Origin: Deltaproteobacteria bacterium
GTDB lineage: Bacteria > Desulfobacterota > GWC2-55-46
Assembly: GCA_019912665.1 (NCBI GenBank)
Contig: JAIOIE010000021.1
Span: forward strand, 135,679-199,678
Reading direction: 5' to 3'
Length of the DNA: 64,000 nt
Part shown: piece after piece, positions 33,662 to 51,126 of the stretch
Layout of the letters: each line of letters opens with the position of its first letter
Numbering within the stretch: the first letter of the stretch is position 1
Notes under the pieces: model-generated
Told to the model about the DNA's origin: nothing
What the model saw: only the letters and a program-made list of their open reading frames with translations
The model's database searches: none
Translations under genes and position numbers: made by a program

Positions 33662-34035
33662 AGCCGGAGGCTGCCGTAAGCCGGATTCTGTTCCCGGTAA
33701 AAACCGGGCGGCGGCCATTCGTCTAGGCCTGCCGTTGCCGGCAGGCTCGAGCGGCCAACCCGTTCCGCCCTCCCGAAGGAAAAGGACGGGCAGTCCTTGA
33801 TGCGGAACCTATTTGGCCTTGCACCGGGAGGGGGTTGCCAAGCCCTGCCGGTCACCCGGCAGGCTGGTGGGCTCTTACCCCGCCTTTTCACCCTTACCGC
33901 CCTTTCGGGCGGCGGTATCTTTTCTGTGGCCCTGTCCCTGGGGTCGCCCCCGGTCGCCGTTAGCGACCTCCCTGCCCTGTGGTGTCCGGACTTTCCTCCG
34001 GCCCGAAGGCCGGTGGCCGCCCGGCAGCCTCCGGC
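33662..34035 (-). ncRNA. rnpB: RNase P RNA, bacterial type A
   Basis: The minus strand carries GGAGGAAAGTCCGGAC (P4 5' strand), GGTAAGGGTGAAAAGG, GCAAGGCCAAATAGG and ACAGAATCCGGCTTAC (P4 3' strand). The ends form a P1 pairing, CCGGAGGCTGCCG/CGGCAGCCTCCGG, followed by a T-run. Confidence 0.93.
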
Positions 34036-35442: not shown

Positions 35443-35518
35443 TGGTGGGCCCACCTGGACTCGAACCAGGGACCGACCGGTTATGAGCCGGTGGCTCTTC
35501 CAACTGAGCTATGGGCCC
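35443..35518 (-). tRNA. tRNA with CAT anticodon (Met, or Ile2/lysidine type)
   Basis: The minus strand reads GGGCCCATAGCTCAGTTGGAAGAGCCACCGGCTCATAACCGGTCGGTCCCTGGTTCGAGTCCAGGTGGGCCCACCA. It is 76 nt with encoded CCA and a cloverleaf that folds by eye. The C4-G69/C5-G68 acceptor pairs resemble tRNA-Ile2. Confidence 0.9.
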
Positions 35519-43703: not shown

Positions 43704-43994
43704 TCAGCCTCTGGGCGAGAATGTCTTGCAGTCCGCGTGCTCGCTGTGGTGGGAGACGTTTATGCCGGGGGCGGTACACTCGTAGGACTTGTTATAATTG
43801 CATTCGTAGGCCCTGCATGCCCCTACGCCGCCGACGATGTCCGCCCCGCCCTTTGTCGGGGCCCTGTAGAAGGTATCGCATGTGGCATGCCCGCCGTCGC
43901 CGACCGTGATAGCCATCGTGTGGCATTCGCTGTTTGTGTTGTACGCGCATTCAAGCACCGTACAGCTCATTATCTTCGGCATTGTAATGGCCAT
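43704..43994 (-). CDS. DUF1540 Cys-rich protein (two repeats)
   Basis: The motif C.V.EC.YN....C.A..I appears twice. The ATG at 43994 is preceded by AAAAGGGGGG. The ORF-track start at 44078 overlaps the predicted promoter. Confidence 0.7.
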   Translation of the reverse strand: MAITMPKIMSCTVLECAYNTNSECHTMAITVGDGGHATCDTFYRAPTKGGADIVGGVGACRAYECNYNKSYECTAPGINVSHHSEHADCKTFSPRG

Positions 43995-44050
43995 TTGTAC
44001 CCCCCTTTTTAATTCTTGGAATCCGGGCCGCCCTATCCCCTGTAAATCTG

Positions 44051-44079
44051 AGTATAACCCCGTTCCGGGCCGTGTCAAT
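44051..44079 (-). promoter_or_regulatory. Sigma70-like promoter of the DUF1540 gene
   Basis: On the minus strand, TTGACA (44079..44074) is followed by a 17-nt spacer and TATACT (44056..44051). Confidence 0.55.
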
Positions 44080-44130
44080 CCGCATTAAACCCTAAAGATT
44101 TCCTGCCCGTTTCCGATAAATCTGAGTGGA

Positions 44131-44272
44131 GGCAACCTCTAAAAATTAGAGATTTTTCCCGCAATCAAGGAAGGCCGGGAATAAAAAGCGGAGCATATAT
44201 GACAATATGTGAGCATTTTTATTACCGGCCTGACGCAGAGTCCGGGGAAAAGATCAATTTCTGGAGGTTGTC
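44131..44272. repeat. MITE-like nested palindromic repeat, full copy 3
   Basis: The terminal inverted repeats are GGCAACCTCTAAAAATT / AATTTCTGGAGGTTGTC (14 of 17 complementary). Inner inverted repeats are GATTTTTCCCG/CCGGGGAAAAGATC and CCGGGAATAAAAA/TTTTTATTACCGG. TGGA is found on both flanks. Confidence 0.75.
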
Positions 44273-44305
44273 TGGATAAAATCGCCCTCCGGACGGCTTA
44301 AATAT

Positions 44306-45553
44306 ATGATGAAAAAAATAAGACTTTCTGAGCTGGAAAAAGGCATGTATGTCTGCGGCGTCGAGAAGCGCGGCATGAGCCCGGTTTTCCTCGTGAATGA
44401 CATCCTCGTGCGCTCGGATGACGACCTGACGAGGATGTCCGCCAGGGGATACGCCCATGTATACATTTCACTGAATGAAAAGGAAGCGGCCCAGCACGCG
44501 GCAAATGACGGGGACGGGGCCGCAGGAGCGCCTTTTTACCCCGGAACAGAAACGCTCACGGCTGCAGATGAAGGGGCCCAAGGGGCAGAAAGCGGCAAAG
44601 ACAACCCGTCCGACCCGTATCGCGAGTTCAAGAAAGAGCTTGCGGAAGCCGAGGACATCCGGCATGACGCCGAGCAGGTGGTTAGGGACTTCCTCCAGAA
44701 CGCCAGGTCCGGGCAGAGTATAGACTCGGACAGGGTCCTCGAAACCGTCGGCCGCATGGTCGACTCGGTAATAAGGAACCAGGACGCGCTCACTAGCCTT
44801 GCAAGGCTCAAGAGCTTCGACGATTACACCTTCGCTCATTCCGTGAACGTGTGCATACTCTCGCTCGCGGTCGGCAGGCACCTCGGGCTCGAGAAAGACG
44901 ACCTCGACCAGCTCGGCCTGGGGGCCATACTCCACGACATAGGGAAGATGCTCGTGCCAGGAGACCTCCTTAACAAGCCCGGCCGCCTTAGCGAAGGCGA
45001 GTTCACGGTCATGAAAAAGCACACGGAGCTCGGCAAGGACGTGCTCGCAGGTATGAAATGCGTGAAGGAGCCCGCTTTGAGGGTGGTGCTCGAGCACCAC
45101 GAGCGCTTCGACGGGAGCGGCTACCACATGCGGCTTTCAGGAAGCGGCATACACCTCTACGCGCGCATAACTGGAATAGCCGACGTGTACGATGCGATGA
45201 CCAGCAACAGGGTCTACCAGAAAGGCATGCGCCCGGAGGACGCGCTCAAGAGGCTATACCATTCAAGAGGCTCCCTCTTCGACCCGGAACTTGTAGAGAG
45301 GCTCATAAAATGCCTGGGGGTCTACCCCATCGGGACCTGCGTAGAGCTCAATACAGGCGAGGCGGCCATCGTCAATATGATAAACCACTCGCACCCGCTT
45401 AAGCCCCGCGTGCTCCTTATAGCGGACAGGGAGGGCCTGCCTTTCCCCGTGCCCCTGGAAACCGACCTCAAGGAGGACGCCGGGAGGTGGATCGTCGGGT
45501 CTAAAAAGCCCGAGGAATTCGCCTTCCATATCCCTGCCCTCTGCGCCAACTGA
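44306..45553 (+). CDS. HD-GYP-family phosphodiesterase with N-terminal DUF3391-like domain
   Basis: The 415-aa ORF contains HDIGK and HHERFDGSGYH, so the GYP position reads GYH. Confidence 0.8.
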   Translation: MMKKIRLSELEKGMYVCGVEKRGMSPVFLVNDILVRSDDDLTRMSARGYAHVYISLNEKEAAQHAANDGDGAAGAPFYPGTETLTAADEGAQGAESGKDNPSDPYREFKKELAEAEDIRHDAEQVVRDFLQNARSGQSIDSDRVLETVGRMVDSVIRNQDALTSLARLKSFDDYTFAHSVNVCILSLAVGRHLGLEKDDLDQLGLGAILHDIGKMLVPGDLLNKPGRLSEGEFTVMKKHTELGKDVLAGMKCVKEPALRVVLEHHERFDGSGYHMRLSGSGIHLYARITGIADVYDAMTSNRVYQKGMRPEDALKRLYHSRGSLFDPELVERLIKCLGVYPIGTCVELNTGEAAIVNMINHSHPLKPRVLLIADREGLPFPVPLETDLKEDAGRWIVGSKKPEEFAFHIPALCAN

Positions 45554-45600
45554 CCGGGTGTGTGCTGAAAAACCGCCAGTTTTCAATCCATTCTTTAAAC

Positions 45601-45639
45601 GGAGGCAAAAGCGCTCGCGACCAAGCGCCTTTTGCCTCC
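45601..45639 (+). terminator. Hairpin downstream of the HD-GYP gene
   Basis: GGAGGCAAAAGCGCT-CGCGACCA-AGCGCCTTTTGCCTCC forms a stem of about 15 bp with one bulge. No clear T-tract follows. Confidence 0.45.
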
Positions 45640-45710
45640 TCTGCATGCCTGCCCGTCCGCCATTTATCAGTGACCGCTCCGCCGAAATATTGTATATTGT
45701 AGGCTAAGAA

Positions 45711-46199
45711 ATGGAGGAAGCCATGAATGAGCTGGTGAGGCTTGACCTGAGGGGCGCGCCGGTGCACGAGCGCCACCCGATGGTATTCGACGGATGGGAA
45801 GGGCTTGCGGCCGGCAAGGTCCTGCAGATAGTAAACGACTACGACCCGAGGGCGATCCGGTACATGCTCGAATCCGAATACGCCGGAAAGTTCGAATGGG
45901 AGTGCGTGTCCAGCGGCCCCGAATGGGTGGTGAACATAACGAAGACCAGGCTTCCCGAGGCGAGCGGCGAGGAACTCAGGAAAAAGGTCATCGCCGGGCT
46001 CGATAATGTGCGGCCGCATCTCCAGGCAGACGGCGGCGACGTCGAGCTTGTGGATATAGACGAGGCCGAAAAGGTCGTCAAGGTGCGCCTTACCGGGGCG
46101 TGCGGGGGCTGCCCCTCGGCGGCCATGACCCTCAAGTCAGGGGTCGAGGTGCAGGTGAGGAAGTTCGCCCCGGAGATACTGAGGGTCGAGCCGGTTTAA
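45711..46199 (+). CDS. DUF2249 domain fused to a NifU C-terminal-like domain
   Basis: The N-terminal part reads LDLRGAPVHERHPMVFDGWEGLAAGKVLQIVNDYDP (DUF2249-like). The C-terminal part reads VRPHLQADGGDVELVDI...GACGGCPSAAMTLK (NifU-like CxxC). The start may be the ATG at 45723. Confidence 0.7.
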   Translation: MEEAMNELVRLDLRGAPVHERHPMVFDGWEGLAAGKVLQIVNDYDPRAIRYMLESEYAGKFEWECVSSGPEWVVNITKTRLPEASGEELRKKVIAGLDNVRPHLQADGGDVELVDIDEAEKVVKVRLTGACGGCPSAAMTLKSGVEVQVRKFAPEILRVEPV

Positions 46200-46217: not shown

Positions 46218-46240
46218 AAAAAAACGCGATTTCCTCGCGT
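46218..46240 (-). terminator. Rho-independent terminator of the radical SAM/mini-protein/YHS operon
   Basis: On the minus strand, ACGCGA-GGAAA-TCGCGT is followed by TTTTTTT, just after the YHS stop codon. Confidence 0.55.
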
Positions 46241-46245
46241 CTGAC

Positions 46246-46398
46246 TCACGCCGTCTTTTTTACGAAACGCTCGGGAGCGTGCTCGAACGCCTCCTTGCAG
46301 GCCTCGCTGCAGAAGTAGTACGTCTTCCCCTTGTACTCTGTCGTGGCCTCGGCGTTTTCTTCGCTAAGCTCCATCTTGCATACGGGGTCGGCAGGCAT
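46246..46398 (-). CDS. YHS/TRASH-type metal-binding mini-protein
   Basis: The sequence is MPADPVCKMELSEENAEATTEYKGKTYYFCSEACKEAFEHAPERF. The ATG at 46398 is preceded by AAGGAGG. The longer ORF-track N-terminus is unsupported. Confidence 0.75.
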   Translation of the reverse strand: MPADPVCKMELSEENAEATTEYKGKTYYFCSEACKEAFEHAPERFVKKTA

Positions 46399-46460
46399 GG
46401 CGCACCTCCTTATATGGTCACCCGTTGAGCCATTCGAAACGGCCGCGCTCAGTGGGCCGG

Positions 46461-46652
46461 TTATTCTGAATTCTTTGGAAGGCAGTCTTCCTTCCAGCAG
46501 CATTGAAGCTGGTCGCATAAATCCACGGCAGTCCCGAAGCACGGGAAGTTACCCTCCGTGACTTGTATCTCCCTTATGAGGTCCCTTTTCCCTTTCCTCG
46601 ATGTCTTAAGCCCGAGCTTCTTCGCCTTTTCCCTTACCTTTTCCATCTGCAT
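46461..46652 (-). CDS. 63-aa mini-protein: HeH (Rho_N/SAP-like) N-terminus plus C-terminal Cys cluster
   Basis: The sequence is MQMEKVREKAKKLGLKTSRKGKRDLIREIQVTEGNFPCFGTAVDLCDQLQCCWKEDCLPKNSE. AAGGAGGA lies upstream of the start. The 5' end overlaps the last 47 nt of the radical SAM gene. Confidence 0.7.
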   Translation of the reverse strand: MQMEKVREKAKKLGLKTSRKGKRDLIREIQVTEGNFPCFGTAVDLCDQLQCCWKEDCLPKNSE

Positions 46653-47874
46653 CCGCGGCTTTCCTCCTTCCGTCTTCTTCCCCTGAGAATCCCCTGTGTA
46701 TGTGCTTCAAGACCCATTCAAGCCCCCTCGAATAGGTGTTGTAGTAATGATAGACCTGGTAATTGCATGTCGAGAGGCACTTGGGGTTGCACTCCTTTTT
46801 CGTCTCGCGGAGCGCGGCCGGGTCGAATGCCGGCTCCCAGACCCTGCCCCAGTCTTTCTCCGTCGAGTAGAGCTCGAAGCAGGGGGCGAGCGTGCCGTCG
46901 AGCCTTATTACAAGCGAATTAAGCCCGGCCCTGCAGTCCCAGGGCCCGCCCTTGCCCCTCACGAACGACTTCATGGCCCGGAGGTGCTCGGCCGAGTTGA
47001 CCATTGGCCAGCCTTCGAGGTTCTTCTCAACGAGCCAGTCAATGAGCTCGTCGGTTTTCCTGAAGTGCTCCTCTGAAATCCAGAAGCCCTGTTCGAGATG
47101 CTTGTAGTGCTTCTGCTCGATGACGGGGTGCTCGTTCATGTGATAGTCGGTGCCGATGTCGTGCTCCCGGGCTATCCGGGTAAGCTCCTTTACGTCCTCG
47201 ATATTTTCCGAGGTGATATTTATGTTGAAGAAAATGATGTAGCCGTACTTCTCCCTGAGCCTCACGAGGTGCTTGAAATTAGTCTTTACCCTATCGAAGC
47301 TCTTCGGAAGCCCCGGCGCTTCCTTAATCTTATCTACCGCGAGGTTTACGGCCGCCACACCCGCATCCCCTGCCCTCTCGATAAAATCCCTGTCCATGAG
47401 GATGCCGTTCGTGGGGAGGTACATGAAGAAGTCCCGGTCGCTCCCGTATTTAATGACATCGAGTATGAACTTCTTCCGTAAGAGCGGCTCCCCTCCCATC
47501 AAGGCCACCACCCTGCAGCCCACGGTCCGGAGCCAGTCGATGGACTTTCTCGCGGTCTCCGGGGGCATGCCCTTCACCTTGTTATTCCAGGTGAAGCAGT
47601 ACCAGCAGTTTACGTTGCATTTCCAGTCTGTGAAGAGATAGGAAAGGAGCGGCCTGAACCTGTCCGAGTAATATCTCGACTTCAGATACGGTATGTACCA
47701 GCAGCGGAGACCCCTTACGAGGTTCTTAGCCGTGTTACGCGTCTTTTTTGAGAGAAGCCTCCCCGTTTTCCCGTCCTCAAGGCCAATTTCCGCACCCGCT
47801 CTGCCCGGCTTTGAAAGCATAGCTCCCTCCTCCGGAAAAAACGTGCTCTTCCCCGTTGCGGGGCCGCTCACCAT
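46606..47874 (-). CDS. Radical SAM enzyme with SPASM/twitch-like C-terminal Cys motifs
   Basis: It has the CX3CX2C motif CNVNCWYC. C-terminal motifs are CRAGLNSLVIRLDGTLAPC (CX12GX4C) and CNPKCLSTC. The likelier start is the ATG at 47820 (MLSKPG...), which follows GGAGGAGGGAG. Confidence 0.8.
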   Translation of the reverse strand: MVSGPATGKSTFFPEEGAMLSKPGRAGAEIGLEDGKTGRLLSKKTRNTAKNLVRGLRCWYIPYLKSRYYSDRFRPLLSYLFTDWKCNVNCWYCFTWNNKVKGMPPETARKSIDWLRTVGCRVVALMGGEPLLRKKFILDVIKYGSDRDFFMYLPTNGILMDRDFIERAGDAGVAAVNLAVDKIKEAPGLPKSFDRVKTNFKHLVRLREKYGYIIFFNINITSENIEDVKELTRIAREHDIGTDYHMNEHPVIEQKHYKHLEQGFWISEEHFRKTDELIDWLVEKNLEGWPMVNSAEHLRAMKSFVRGKGGPWDCRAGLNSLVIRLDGTLAPCFELYSTEKDWGRVWEPAFDPAALRETKKECNPKCLSTCNYQVYHYYNTYSRGLEWVLKHIHRGFSGEEDGRRKAADADGKGKGKGEEARA

Positions 47875-48019: not shown

Positions 48020-49402
48020 ATGAAGCTTACTTTCGTCGGCGGAGCGAGCACCGTAACAGGCTCCTGCTACCATATCGAGGTCGGAAAATTCAAATTCCTC
48101 GTCGAGTGCGGCCTTCACCAGGGCATAGGCTCCGATGAACTAAACAGGCACCCCTTCCCCTTCGACCCGGCATCGCTCGATTTCATATTCGTAACGCACG
48201 CCCACATAGACCATTCCGGGATGCTCCCGAGGGCAGTGAGGGACGGCTTTAAAGGGACGATAATCTCGACGGCGGCGACAAGGGACCTCCTTGAGCCCAT
48301 GCTCTATGACGCGGCGAGCATTCAGGAGAGCGACAGCGAATGGGCGACGAGAAAGGCGCTCCGCTCAGGCAAGCCCCCGCAAGAGCCCCTTTACACGAGC
48401 GAGGACGTCGAGCGGGTACTCCCCCTTTTCGAGATAAAGGAATACGACAAGGTCTATCACCTCGGCCCGGGCGTGAAATACCGTTTCCTGGACGCCGGGC
48501 ACATATTGGGCTCGGCCTCGCTTGAGATATGGTATCAGGACAGCGCCGAAGAGAAAAAGATAGTCTTCTCAGGCGACATCGGCAAGAAGGGCAACCCCAT
48601 AATAAAAGACCCATCGGCGCCTGACCTCGCGAATTACGTGGTGATGGAGTCCACTTACGGCAACAGGTCGCACAAGCCCCTCAATGAATCCATAAACGAG
48701 CTCGTTAGCGCCATCAAGACGACATTCAGGAAGGGCGGGAACGTCTATATTCCCTCCTTCGCGGTCGGCAGGGCCCAGGACTTACTCTATATTCTCAATA
48801 ACCTGGTGCGTGAGGGCCGTCTTTACAGGATAGACGTCTACCTCGACAGTCCCCTTGCCGAGGCTGTTACCAAGATCTATGTAGCCCATCCCGAATGCTT
48901 TGACGAGGAGGCGCGCCATCTCTTCACCACCAAGCAGTCTGATTCGTCGATAAGGCTCCATTTCGTCCGGACGGCCGAGGAGTCGATGAAGCTAAACAGG
49001 CTCCGCTCCGGGAACATCATCATAGCCGGAAGCGGCATGTGCGAGGGCGGCAGGATAAAGCACCATCTCAAGCACAACCTCTGGCGCTCGGAGTGCAGCG
49101 TCATCTTCGTCGGCTACCAGGCAAAGGGCACTCTCGGAAGGAAGATCGTGGACGGCGCGAAGTCCGTGACCGTTTTGGGAGAGGAAGTGCTCGTCCGCGC
49201 CTCCATCCACACCATAAACGGCTTTTCCGCCCACGCGGGCAGGGAGGGCCTGCTTGATTGGCTCTCGGACTTCGACGACTCGCCGGAGATATTCATCGTG
49301 CACGGCGAGGACGAGGCCGGGGAATCGTTCGCGGGGCTTATAAAGGAGAAGTACGGGTTTGCTACCAGGAGACCGCAGAACGGGGAGACGGTGGAGATAT
49401 AG
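48020..49402 (+). CDS. MBL-fold beta-CASP family metallo-nuclease
   Basis: The 460-aa ORF contains the HAHIDHSG motif, DAGHILGSA, ESTYG and a C-terminal FSAHAG, as seen in CPSF73/RNase J-like enzymes. Confidence 0.8.
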   Translation: MKLTFVGGASTVTGSCYHIEVGKFKFLVECGLHQGIGSDELNRHPFPFDPASLDFIFVTHAHIDHSGMLPRAVRDGFKGTIISTAATRDLLEPMLYDAASIQESDSEWATRKALRSGKPPQEPLYTSEDVERVLPLFEIKEYDKVYHLGPGVKYRFLDAGHILGSASLEIWYQDSAEEKKIVFSGDIGKKGNPIIKDPSAPDLANYVVMESTYGNRSHKPLNESINELVSAIKTTFRKGGNVYIPSFAVGRAQDLLYILNNLVREGRLYRIDVYLDSPLAEAVTKIYVAHPECFDEEARHLFTTKQSDSSIRLHFVRTAEESMKLNRLRSGNIIIAGSGMCEGGRIKHHLKHNLWRSECSVIFVGYQAKGTLGRKIVDGAKSVTVLGEEVLVRASIHTINGFSAHAGREGLLDWLSDFDDSPEIFIVHGEDEAGESFAGLIKEKYGFATRRPQNGETVEI

Positions 49403-49491: not shown

Positions 49492-50034
49492 ATGCAATAT
49501 CGGAGAACACAAACAAAAAGCGGCTCGTTCTTTTTTACCGTCGTGACTCATGAGAGGCAGCGGATATTATGCCTTGATGAAAACATCCTTCTTTTAAAGG
49601 ATGCATTCAGCCATGTCATGGCAAAGCACCCGTTCACCATCGACGCATTCGTTTGCCTTCCGGACCACATCCATTGCGTCTGGACCATGCCGGAAAACGA
49701 CGGGGATTTTTTCTACTCGCTGGCGTCTTATCAAGAGCCACTTCAGCGCACTGGTAGCGGGCAGACAATGAAGCAACCCGGACGGCTTCCCGCATAAAAA
49801 AGGCGAGCAGGGCATTTGGCAGCGGCGTTTCTGGGAACACAGCATACGGGACCAGAGTGATTTTAACCGGCATATCGAATATATCCATTACAATCCTGTC
49901 AGGCACGGGATTGTAAAGTCGCCCAGGGATTGGCCGTATACAAGCTTTCACGAATATGTAAATGACGGGACCTTAACCATCATTGGGGAGCAGGCGAAAA
50001 TATAGAATTCGACGACTATGTCGGGAATGAATGA
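49492..50034 (+). pseudogene. REP-associated tyrosine transposase (RAYT, IS200/IS605 Y1-like), disrupted
   Basis: Frame 1 gives ...PDHIHCVWTMPENDGDF. After a T-run at about 49711-49716 the homology continues in another frame (STRWRLIKSHFS...RQ*SN...KGEQGIWQRRFWEHSIRD...IHYNPVRHGIVKSPRDWPYTSFHEYV) with an in-frame TGA. The tail (HHWGAGENIEFDDYVGNE) is in a third frame. Confidence 0.8.
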
Positions 50035-50241: not shown

Positions 50242-51126
50242 GTGAAAAGATATTTCTTAATTGTTTGTGGGGTCTTTTTCTTGAATTGCAAAAATACAGC
50301 ATACGCTAATAATGCCCCTGAGCAAGCGACTTCTCCGACTGAAAGGACTCATCTTGAAGAAGTATTCACGCCATGCAAGAAAAAAAATGGTTCCGTTAAA
50401 GAAAATTGCAAAAAAACAGAAAAGCCTTATTATATTGATTTGATGATGGGGGTAGATTATGCATTAGAGGCTAAAGACGAGAATGGAAACAATACTCAAA
50501 ATAATTTTTCAGACGGTAAATTCAATATAGGGCTTACTGCGCATCAAAAATTTAATGCTTATGAAAGTGCAGATCTTTCCCTCTCATCATACCGTGGCTT
50601 TTTGACAGTGAAATTGGCTAGCGCTTCTGTTGAAATCCCAGAAAATGGAGATTCCCAGGTTTTGACTGAGCAAAGATCCTTAGGTATACAAGGAGGATTA
50701 TTTTGGGGATGTCGTTTAAATAAAGATAACCAGAGTTTAAATTTTCAAAGCTATGAAATAGGACCCATAATAAAATTCGGAGGACAAACTTCCGAAATTA
50801 AGGATCAATTAATTACAAGCGGATCTTTGCAGGTTAGGATTTTGCAGACAGGTAAATGGGTAAATGGGGCATATCTCGATGTAGGCTACGGTTTTAATGG
50901 AGCACTCGAGAACGAAGGCAGATGGAAACTAGATGCATTTTTGCCAATTGAAGGGTTACAGCTGAATGGTTCCTATCTAAATTTATTTTTAGCAACCAGC
51001 GTAGAAAGTGATTTGGGAAATAAAAAAGATTTAGTTACATTTAGCGTCGGAACGTTTATAGATTTTATAAGTCTGGGAAAAGCTCTAGGCAATATTTTCA
51101 GTGCAGCTGGAATAAATTTAAATTGA
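50242..51126 (+). CDS. Orphan secreted protein/lipoprotein in an AT-rich island, possibly an outer-membrane beta-barrel
   Basis: The 294-aa ORF has a GTG start after GGAGGGG and a signal peptide, MKRYFLIVCGVFFLNCKNTAYA. Alternating hydrophobic/polar strands are visible (YLDVGYGF, LVTFSVGTFIDF). Codon usage is AT-rich, unlike every other gene here. I recognise no family. Confidence 0.6.
   Translation: MKRYFLIVCGVFFLNCKNTAYANNAPEQATSPTERTHLEEVFTPCKKKNGSVKENCKKTEKPYYIDLMMGVDYALEAKDENGNNTQNNFSDGKFNIGLTAHQKFNAYESADLSLSSYRGFLTVKLASASVEIPENGDSQVLTEQRSLGIQGGLFWGCRLNKDNQSLNFQSYEIGPIIKFGGQTSEIKDQLITSGSLQVRILQTGKWVNGAYLDVGYGFNGALENEGRWKLDAFLPIEGLQLNGSYLNLFLATSVESDLGNKKDLVTFSVGTFIDFISLGKALGNIFSAAGINLN

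Follow-up and report, generated by a model that had tools for sequence, protein, structure and literature searches.

A radical SAM gene, an overlapping gene for a cysteine-containing mini-protein and a YHS gene in a deltaproteobacterial genome: layout, distribution and possible roles

The three genes and their products

Three neighbouring genes on the minus strand are described here from a stretch of 64,000 nucleotides (nt) of contig JAIOIE010000021.1 (NCBI assembly GCA_019912665.1, Deltaproteobacteria bacterium). This stretch is referred to as the window and its coordinates are used throughout, while L-numbers denote the loci of relatives from other genomes and metagenomes. The genes encode a radical S-adenosylmethionine (SAM) enzyme, a mini-protein of 63 amino acids (aa) and a small YHS protein. 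Enzyme and mini-protein are already present in public records under generic names, and the three-gene system is not conserved. With moderate confidence, we read the trio as a lineage-specific operon whose three genes are functionally separable and not as a dedicated module of an enzyme and its substrate.

The radical SAM gene occupies positions 46606-47820 (minus strand) and encodes 404 aa; the longest form of its open reading frame (ORF), with an alternative start at 47874 (46606-47874), would encode 422 aa. The start at 47820 is the more likely one, as it is preceded by GGAGG and agrees with the NCBI record MBZ0220810.1. According to the ORF coordinates, the mini-ORF (46461-46652, minus strand) begins within the 3′ end of the radical SAM gene, the two overlapping by 47 nt (46606-46652, minus strand). 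Its ribosome-binding site, AAGGAGGA (46662-46669, minus strand), is situated within the coding region of the radical SAM gene, some 10 nt ahead of the ATG. The YHS gene (46246-46398, minus strand) is preceded by an AGGAGG site at 46405-46410 (minus strand). Directly past its stop codon, RNA folding displays an intrinsic terminator (46218-46239, minus strand), consisting of a hairpin at about 46225-46239 followed by a run of seven uridines (U7) at 46218-46224, with a folding energy of -13.8 kcal/mol (z=-3.2 versus shuffled sequences). A simple pattern scan for terminators did not list this hairpin and U7 after the YHS gene; the support for it comes from folding. The layout suggests that the three genes are probably co-transcribed as a compact unit in the lineage of the window.

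The enzyme is recognized by the Pfam model Radical_SAM (PF04055) with E=1.5e-16 and 61.5 bits, versus a cut-off of 29.5. In an alignment of 30 family members, the cysteines C68, C72, C75, C102, C296, C314, C344 and C348 as well as G309 are invariant, and C352 is nearly so. C68, C72 and C75 constitute the CX3CX2C motif (CNVNCWYC), C296 and C314 belong to the CX12GX4C motif (CRAGLNSLVIRLDGTLAPC), and C344, C348 and C352 form a CX3CX3C motif (CNPKCLSTC). The same alignment displays a conserved, family-specific N-terminal segment (N..RA.R.W..PY.KSR) and an unconserved, low-complexity tail past about residue 378, comprising the last ~26 residues (…GFSGEEDGRRKAADADGKGKGKGEEARA). The overlap with the mini-ORF falls into this tail. 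Homologues are found in bacteria and archaea (2,295 at E<=1e-3). Many of them have 50–57% identity and derive from metagenome-assembled genomes labelled Deltaproteobacteria/Thermodesulfobacteriota, Marinimicrobia, Blastocatellia, Bacteroidia, Woesearchaeota and Methanosarcinales.

No match of the enzyme to the Pfam models SPASM and PqqD, the latter representing the recognition element (RRE) of ribosomally synthesized and post-translationally modified peptides (RiPPs), was obtained at E<=0.1. In NCBIfam, 64 families match the enzyme. None of the 25 listed comes anywhere near its curated cut-off (best score 61.8 bits versus a cut-off of 380), and most are of the SPASM type (W-cofactor maturase, NirJ, AhbD, SCIFF maturase, PapB, Tes). 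A profile search of the PDB returns CteB (5wgg, E=2e-14) as the best relative. This alignment covers profile positions 46-321 and chain residues 101-389 and reaches the C-terminal domain of CteB; viperins, Tes and MoaA align in the core alone.

An earlier note on this DNA, made from the sequence alone, had assigned the auxiliary-cluster pattern of SPASM/twitch enzymes to this protein. This assignment stands with respect to CX12GX4C and its invariant C296, G309 and C314. It does not extend to the full seven-cysteine SPASM signature (CX2CX5CX3C and a distal cysteine), of which the enzyme offers CX3CX3C only, nor to the Pfam SPASM model. A C-terminal CX3CX3C only, together with the silence of Pfam SPASM, is what would be expected of a twitch-like domain holding one auxiliary cluster. 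Hence, the pattern is probably that of a partial SPASM or twitch-like protein, in which one auxiliary cluster would be present besides the radical SAM cluster. The further statement that such enzymes typically act on peptide or protein substrates is of limited use here, as the chemistry is not specific to peptides. In Tes, AhbD, BtrN and MoaA, SPASM/twitch chemistry is carried out on lipids, haem, sugars and guanosine triphosphate.

The mini-ORF is a real gene: an identical sequence is recorded at NCBI (MBZ0220809.1, 'SAP domain-containing protein'), from a metagenome-assembled genome that bears the label Ca. Methylomirabilis sp. or Deltaproteobacteria bacterium, and it belongs to a large conserved family. 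A word-indexed profile search yielded 782 clusters at 90% identity, and exhaustive HMMER searches yielded 1,394 representatives at 50% identity with E<=1e-3, of which 443 have E<=1e-10. Nearly all members are 58–100 aa long, and the family alignment displays conservation along the whole length. The mini-protein is strongly basic in its N-terminal half and acidic in its C-terminal half, the latter carrying a putative four-cysteine knuckle. Across 62 diverse sequences C38, C46, C51 and C57 do not vary but C52 does, and the segment EGNFPCFGTA is nearly invariant. Some homologues are larger: P0151, P0155, P0181, P0227 and P0254 (155–168 aa) are extended at the C-terminus by a coiled coil of about 100 aa, and P0230 contains a fused receiver domain of the response-regulator type.

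An N-terminal helix-extended-helix (HeH) segment is suggested by several weak lines. No Pfam or NCBIfam model exceeds its threshold on the mini-protein of the window; NCBIfam gives no match at all, and Rho_N reaches E=0.066 and 13.6 bits versus a Pfam cut-off of 24.9. For many homologues, a match to PF07498 is precomputed. An AlphaFold model based on the alignment of 62 sequences (predicted local distance difference test score, pLDDT, of 81) displays a helix at residues 3-12, an extended segment and a second helix at residues 22-32. Foldseek returned nothing significant for this model in the PDB, the top matches being Rho N-terminal domains with a root-mean-square deviation of 1.1 Å over 34 residues. 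Likewise, a sequence-profile search of the PDB gave sub-threshold matches to the HeH segments of Rho and SLX4 only. Taken together, the family, for which Pfam and NCBIfam offer no model of its own, is characterized by a predicted HeH (Rho_N/SAP-like) N-terminus and four invariant cysteines.

The TIGR03277 model (methanogenesis marker 9) matches 6 of the 62 relatives weakly (15–21 bits versus a cut-off of 96.2); it does not match the mini-protein of the window. In these relatives, residues 20-59, which span the second helix and the cysteine cluster, correspond to profile positions 46-86. Two homologues are named 'predicted metal-binding transcription factor (methanogenesis marker protein 9)' at JGI. 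Literature searches on the mini-protein family (SAP domain, cysteine, HD-GYP) found nothing, and those on marker 9 found no characterised function.

The third gene encodes a clear YHS protein (Pfam YHS PF04945, E=3.6e-19, 68.9 bits versus a cut-off of 30.3) of 50 aa, whose cysteines C7-x22-C30-x3-C34 follow a TRASH-type spacing.

The sequence-level statements of the earlier note are all correct. It had listed three tight minus-strand genes with a terminator of their own, in agreement with the ORF coordinates and the folding of hairpin and U7. It had described a radical SAM protein of about 405–420 aa with CNVNCWYC, CX12GX4C and CNPKCLSTC, confirmed by Pfam and the alignment, and a 63-aa ORF with a strong ribosome-binding site starting 47 nt inside the first gene, which is exact in coordinates and sequence. 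The cysteine cluster it proposed for this ORF is upheld, and the HeH segment is tentatively supported, the weak Rho_N match in the window being complemented by PF07498 in the family and by the AlphaFold model. The identification of a 50-aa YHS/TRASH metal-binding peptide agrees with Pfam and the cysteine spacing, and a DUF2249-NifU fusion does lie convergently next door (Pfam, 45711-46199, plus strand).

Distribution of the three genes among genomes

A metagenome scan with a profile of the mini-protein yielded 80 loci (73 non-redundant groups, median length 5.5 kb). Neighbours were counted by profile hidden Markov model (HMM) and jackhmmer searches of stop-to-stop ORFs, and for the enzyme by tblastn as well. 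Within a reach of about 5 kb, a radical SAM gene, whether of the enzyme family or with any radical SAM core, is found in none of the 80 loci (tblastn, jackhmmer). In the opposite direction, 11 independent loci of the enzyme family were collected (L015, L016, L020-L023, L025, L027, L109, L111 and L112; 50–68% identical), and HMM searches of the available flanks detect neither the mini-protein nor YHS in any of them. The earlier note had cast the mini-protein as either a substrate of the enzyme or its metal/Fe-S (iron-sulfur) partner. The counts of 0/80 and 0/11 do not bear this out, and enzyme homologues lacking an adjacent mini-ORF, which the note itself had held to speak against the idea, are what all 11 loci contain. 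Enzyme and mini-protein are thus, with high confidence, not an obligate enzyme-substrate pair.

Closer relatives retain the surroundings of the locus. In the window, the trio is flanked on one side by the DUF2249-NifU fusion, which is convergent with it. Beyond this fusion lie a protein with DUF3391 and HD-GYP (HD_5) domains (Pfam, 44306-45553, plus strand) and, past the HD-GYP gene, a DUF1540 protein (Pfam/NCBIfam). On the other side, upstream of the trio and divergent from it, lies a protein of the beta-CASP metallo-beta-lactamase fold (Pfam/NCBIfam, 48020-49402, plus strand). L001-3 and L008-9 are syntenic with the window and contain beta-CASP, mini-protein, YHS, NifU, HD-GYP and DUF1540 genes without the enzyme. 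Further syntenic blocks (L032, L033, L037, L038/40) also contain mini-protein and YHS without the enzyme. Enzyme, mini-protein with the same 47-nt overlap and YHS are all found in L010-13, where the mini-protein is 84% identical. The overlap is also kept in L017 and L018; it is restricted to close relatives and lies in the unconserved tail of the enzyme. The order of radical SAM gene, mini-protein and YHS is found in L010, L017, L018 and L014. In the last of these (enzyme 66% identical), the radical SAM gene is followed by a gap of 213 nt, a mini-protein of 87 aa and YHS. In L111 (enzyme 64% identical), the radical SAM gene directly faces DUF2249-NifU and HD-GYP in convergent orientation, and both mini-protein and YHS are missing. 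L098 contains the mini-protein and lacks YHS, which adjoins the mini-protein in all other syntenic relatives.

The DUF2249-NifU gene is kept in L001, L008, L010, L014, L017, L018, L032, L033, L037, L038, L098 and L111. The conserved core of the syntenic block is DUF2249-NifU together with HD-GYP, and enzyme, mini-protein and YHS are individually present or absent. Between the window and L014, the enzyme is 66% identical, compared with 76% for beta-CASP, 67% for NifU, 65% for YHS and 58% for the mini-protein. Since the identity of the enzyme resembles that of the flanking genes, this pattern suggests that the arrangement is ancestral, with genes lost from it repeatedly and independently, and not the outcome of a recent insertion. 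On either history, enzyme and mini-protein do not require each other.

As side observations on this block, the unit of DUF1540, DUF3391-HD-GYP and DUF2249-NifU (43704-46199 in the window) is kept in all relatives of the locus, where SAM_HAT and D-Tyr-tRNA deacylase come next after it. Just past the beta-CASP gene, L001 and L014 encode a cytochrome cd1-type nitrite reductase.

Outside the clade of the window, the enzyme family is found in varied contexts. L112 (enzyme 62% identical) is preceded by an RND pump, P-II and an HMA ATPase, and L109 (64% identical) by a cation ATPase. The distant members L015, L016, L020-L023, L025 and L027 reside in unrelated contexts. The family is large, very conserved, widely distributed and usually stand-alone.

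Some of these contexts contain neighbours of the lipid type. On the metagenome contig L027 (6001-7735), the enzyme homologue overlaps a downstream CarS-like gene (CDP-archaeol synthase family) by about 25 nt. The homologue of L022 adjoins a CDP-alcohol phosphatidyltransferase, and that of L016 (Blastocatellia) is grouped with three further radical SAM genes as well as DUF2229 and KASIII. That the enzyme family acts on a lipid or another small molecule is a weak lead at this stage. Two candidate identities were considered in this context. Hbs, the synthase of the bridge in H-shaped glycerol dialkyl glycerol tetraethers (H-GDGT), resembles AhbD, exceeds 400 aa in length and has an N-terminal COG4001 domain (bioRxiv 10.1101/2023.10.20.563219). 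An identity with Hbs was rejected because both AhbD-level similarity (54 bits on the AhbD model versus a cut-off of 500) and the COG4001 domain are missing from the enzyme. For Mss, no homologues have been reported in Acidobacteria (PMC13159169). The enzyme family is present in Blastocatellia, which argues weakly against an identity with Mss.

Neighbours of the mini-protein and competing explanations

The commonest neighbour of the mini-protein is an HD domain of the HD-GYP type, present in 18 of the 80 loci and directly downstream in 10–11 of them. YHS is found in 9/80 and is always directly adjacent. An RND pump occurs in 13/80, a CusB-like protein in 5/80, and a secreted Met/His-rich protein of 182 aa without a Pfam match in 14/80. 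A UspA-type protein lies directly upstream of the mini-protein in 13/80, usually together with an unannotated protein of 117 aa. NifU is present in 5/80, all of the same clade. In total, metal-related genes are found in 23/80 loci. In L004-7, the mini-protein lies beside two YHS-fused enzymes, a cupredoxin and an HMA P-type ATPase, again without the enzyme. The frequency expected by chance was estimated from usual gene copy numbers, without a matched random-locus control; by this estimate, adjacency of the mini-protein to HD-GYP, YHS and the Cus/Met-rich block seems to lie above random expectation. The metal theme proposed in the earlier note is supported for mini-protein and YHS by loci other than the window, and in the clade of the window YHS and DUF2249-NifU add a metal/iron-sulfur (Fe-S) flavour.

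Two recurrent gene orders may be mentioned as observations of their own. In L066 (1-6160), CusB, a CusA-type RND pump, the 182-aa Met/His-rich protein, the mini-protein and HD-GYP (HD_5) follow each other, and L053, L056, L074, L077, L081, L095, L096 and L107 are alike. An architecture of this kind suggests a link of copper/silver efflux with the turnover of cyclic di-GMP (c-di-GMP). In L064 (4313-4954), the unannotated 117-aa protein, which has no Pfam match, is followed by the UspA-type protein and the mini-protein, as is also the case in L065, L067, L071, L073, L078, L082, L084, L087, L091, L092 and L099.

If the three genes of the window are indeed functionally separable, the radical SAM enzyme would act apart from the mini-protein, on a substrate other than the latter. 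The basic HeH segment of the mini-protein may contact nucleic acid or a partner protein, and its four invariant cysteines may form a metal site. Mini-protein and YHS would then share a role in the sensing or handling of a metal in the cytoplasm (Cu(I)/Zn, or Fe-S/redox), possibly tied to c-di-GMP signalling by HD-GYP. Handling of copper/silver and signalling by HD-GYP are considered for the mini-protein because of its recurrent neighbours. We put forward tentatively that the mini-protein is a small cytoplasmic metal-binding regulator or adaptor, linked to copper/silver and HD-GYP. The broader hypothesis, according to which the family comprises widespread minimal metal- or redox-responsive regulators that couple copper (or Fe-S) status to efflux of the Cus/CopA type and to HD-GYP, with YHS as metal donor or buffer in the lineage of the window, is speculative and would have to be regarded as rather improbable in its full extent.

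Several observations weigh against this interpretation. The genes of the window lie close together and end in a single terminator, two of them overlap by 47 nt, and the more distant L014 keeps the order of radical SAM gene, mini-protein and YHS; packing and order therefore leave room for a lineage-specific functional link. Neighbours of the lipid type accompany the enzyme in only 3 of its 11 contexts (L027, L022 and L016). About 70% of the mini-protein loci contain no metal genes and display Usp proteins, response regulators and unrelated neighbours instead.

The latter figure also bears on an explanation in which adjacency carries no meaning. The enzyme gene would have been inserted or retained at a recombination-prone spot that separates beta-CASP from the mini-protein, and the mini-protein would be a generic zinc-stabilised nucleic-acid-binding protein unrelated to metal homeostasis. 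The clean presence or absence of enzyme, YHS and mini-protein between beta-CASP and NifU among the relatives would be expected from such a history, and the very diverse neighbourhoods of the mini-protein, mostly without a metal gene, agree with it as well. However, direct adjacency to HD-GYP (10–11 loci), YHS (9) and the Cus/Met-rich block (~14) seems, by estimate, to exceed random expectation, and we consider this explanation doubtful.

Supply or repair of Fe-S clusters has to be weighed as a further explanation. Mini-protein, YHS and DUF2249-NifU would serve the clusters of the enzyme or the iron centre of HD-GYP, with the mini-protein as an Fe-S carrier or sensor. HD-GYP enzymes use di- or tri-iron centres, and HD-GYP is both the commonest neighbour of the mini-protein and, with DUF2249-NifU, the invariant core of the syntenic block. 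In L111 the enzyme adjoins NifU even where mini-protein and YHS are missing, and the four invariant cysteines of the mini-protein could ligate a [4Fe-4S] or [2Fe-2S] cluster. Yet NifU accompanies the mini-protein in 5/80 loci of one clade only, most loci of the enzyme family contain neither NifU nor mini-protein nor YHS, and the Cus, CopA and YHS neighbours favour copper over iron, which makes this explanation unlikely.

The idea that the enzyme post-translationally modifies the mini-protein (RiPP-like or by cross-linking of cysteines), with YHS as an accessory metal protein, could appeal to the nested start of the mini-ORF and the shared terminator, to the recurrence of the gene order in L010, L017, L018 and L014, to the cysteine-rich mini-protein, and to an enzyme whose best match among solved structures, CteB, is a SCIFF thioether maturase and which SPASM peptide-maturase models match weakly, but it was rejected as very improbable on grounds of co-occurrence (0/80 and 0/11, and syntenic relatives without either enzyme or mini-protein), of the missing RRE/PqqD domain (Pfam, E<=0.1), of maturase matches far below the NCBIfam cut-offs, and of the architecture of the mini-protein, on which SCIFF and other precursor models of NCBIfam are silent and which is conserved in full length and predicted to fold, unlike precursors made of leader and core. 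Separable functions of the three genes remain the reading that we prefer.

Some further features of the window were recorded. The beta-CASP protein, which also has an RMMBL domain, adjoins the locus in all syntenic relatives and scores 426 bits on the NCBIfam model of type VII CRISPR Cas14. This lies below the cut-off of 800, and the protein is therefore a mere relative of the Cas14 family. Between 50001 and 52000, the GC content falls to 0.45, compared with ~0.58 elsewhere. The dip coincides with an ORF at 50242-51126 (plus strand) that encodes 294 aa with a signal-peptide-like N-terminus and has no Pfam match, and just upstream of it lies a short fragment resembling IS200/Y1 transposases (49492-49797, E=0.008). 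This stretch is possibly acquired DNA. The window also contains a bacterial RNase P RNA of class A (33662-34032, minus strand, 303 bits) and one tRNA (35446-35518, minus strand).

Relation to known systems

A new pair of radical SAM enzyme and HeH-cysteine substrate would be notable if true, but finds no support in comparative genomics. What remains are two large conserved families, namely a stand-alone, twitch-like radical SAM family in many bacterial and archaeal phyla, and a family of proteins of about 60 aa that combine HeH with four cysteines.

SPASM/twitch enzymes such as CteB, anSME, AhbD/NirJ and Tes share with the enzyme of the window the CX3CX2C motif, CX12GX4C and further conserved C-terminal cysteines. 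In contrast to SPASM proteins, the enzyme carries CX3CX3C in place of CX2CX5CX3C, possesses five C-terminal cysteines only, lacks an RRE and is mostly encoded stand-alone.

Rho N-terminal, SAP and HeH modules consist of a helix, an extended segment and a helix, and the first 33 residues of the mini-protein are predicted to do likewise. The mini-protein differs from these modules by the fused four-cysteine knuckle, and neither the profile search of the PDB nor Foldseek gave a significant match. The similarity to methanogenesis marker 9 (TIGR03277 / COG4008) is weak, runs across the cysteine cluster and is found in some relatives of the mini-protein only. Marker 9 is longer, contains two cysteine-rich repeats and is not known outside methanogens.

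YHS/TRASH domains include gene 3 as a clear member, by Pfam as well as by cysteine spacing. Gene 3 is stand-alone, unlike the N-terminal YHS domains of the P-type ATPase or oxidoreductase in L004-7 and L103. Small copper-sensing repressors with a cysteine cluster, such as CopY (CxCx4CxC), offer a functional analogy only: they combine a small DNA-binding module with a C-terminal cysteine cluster, as the mini-protein may do, and a substantial minority of the mini-protein loci have copper export genes as neighbours. Mini-protein and CopY have no relationship in sequence or fold, and binding of DNA and Cu(I) by the mini-protein is putative. The position of the mini-protein beside copper efflux, YHS and HD-GYP provides a testable hypothesis for a family that is annotated just as 'SAP domain-containing'.

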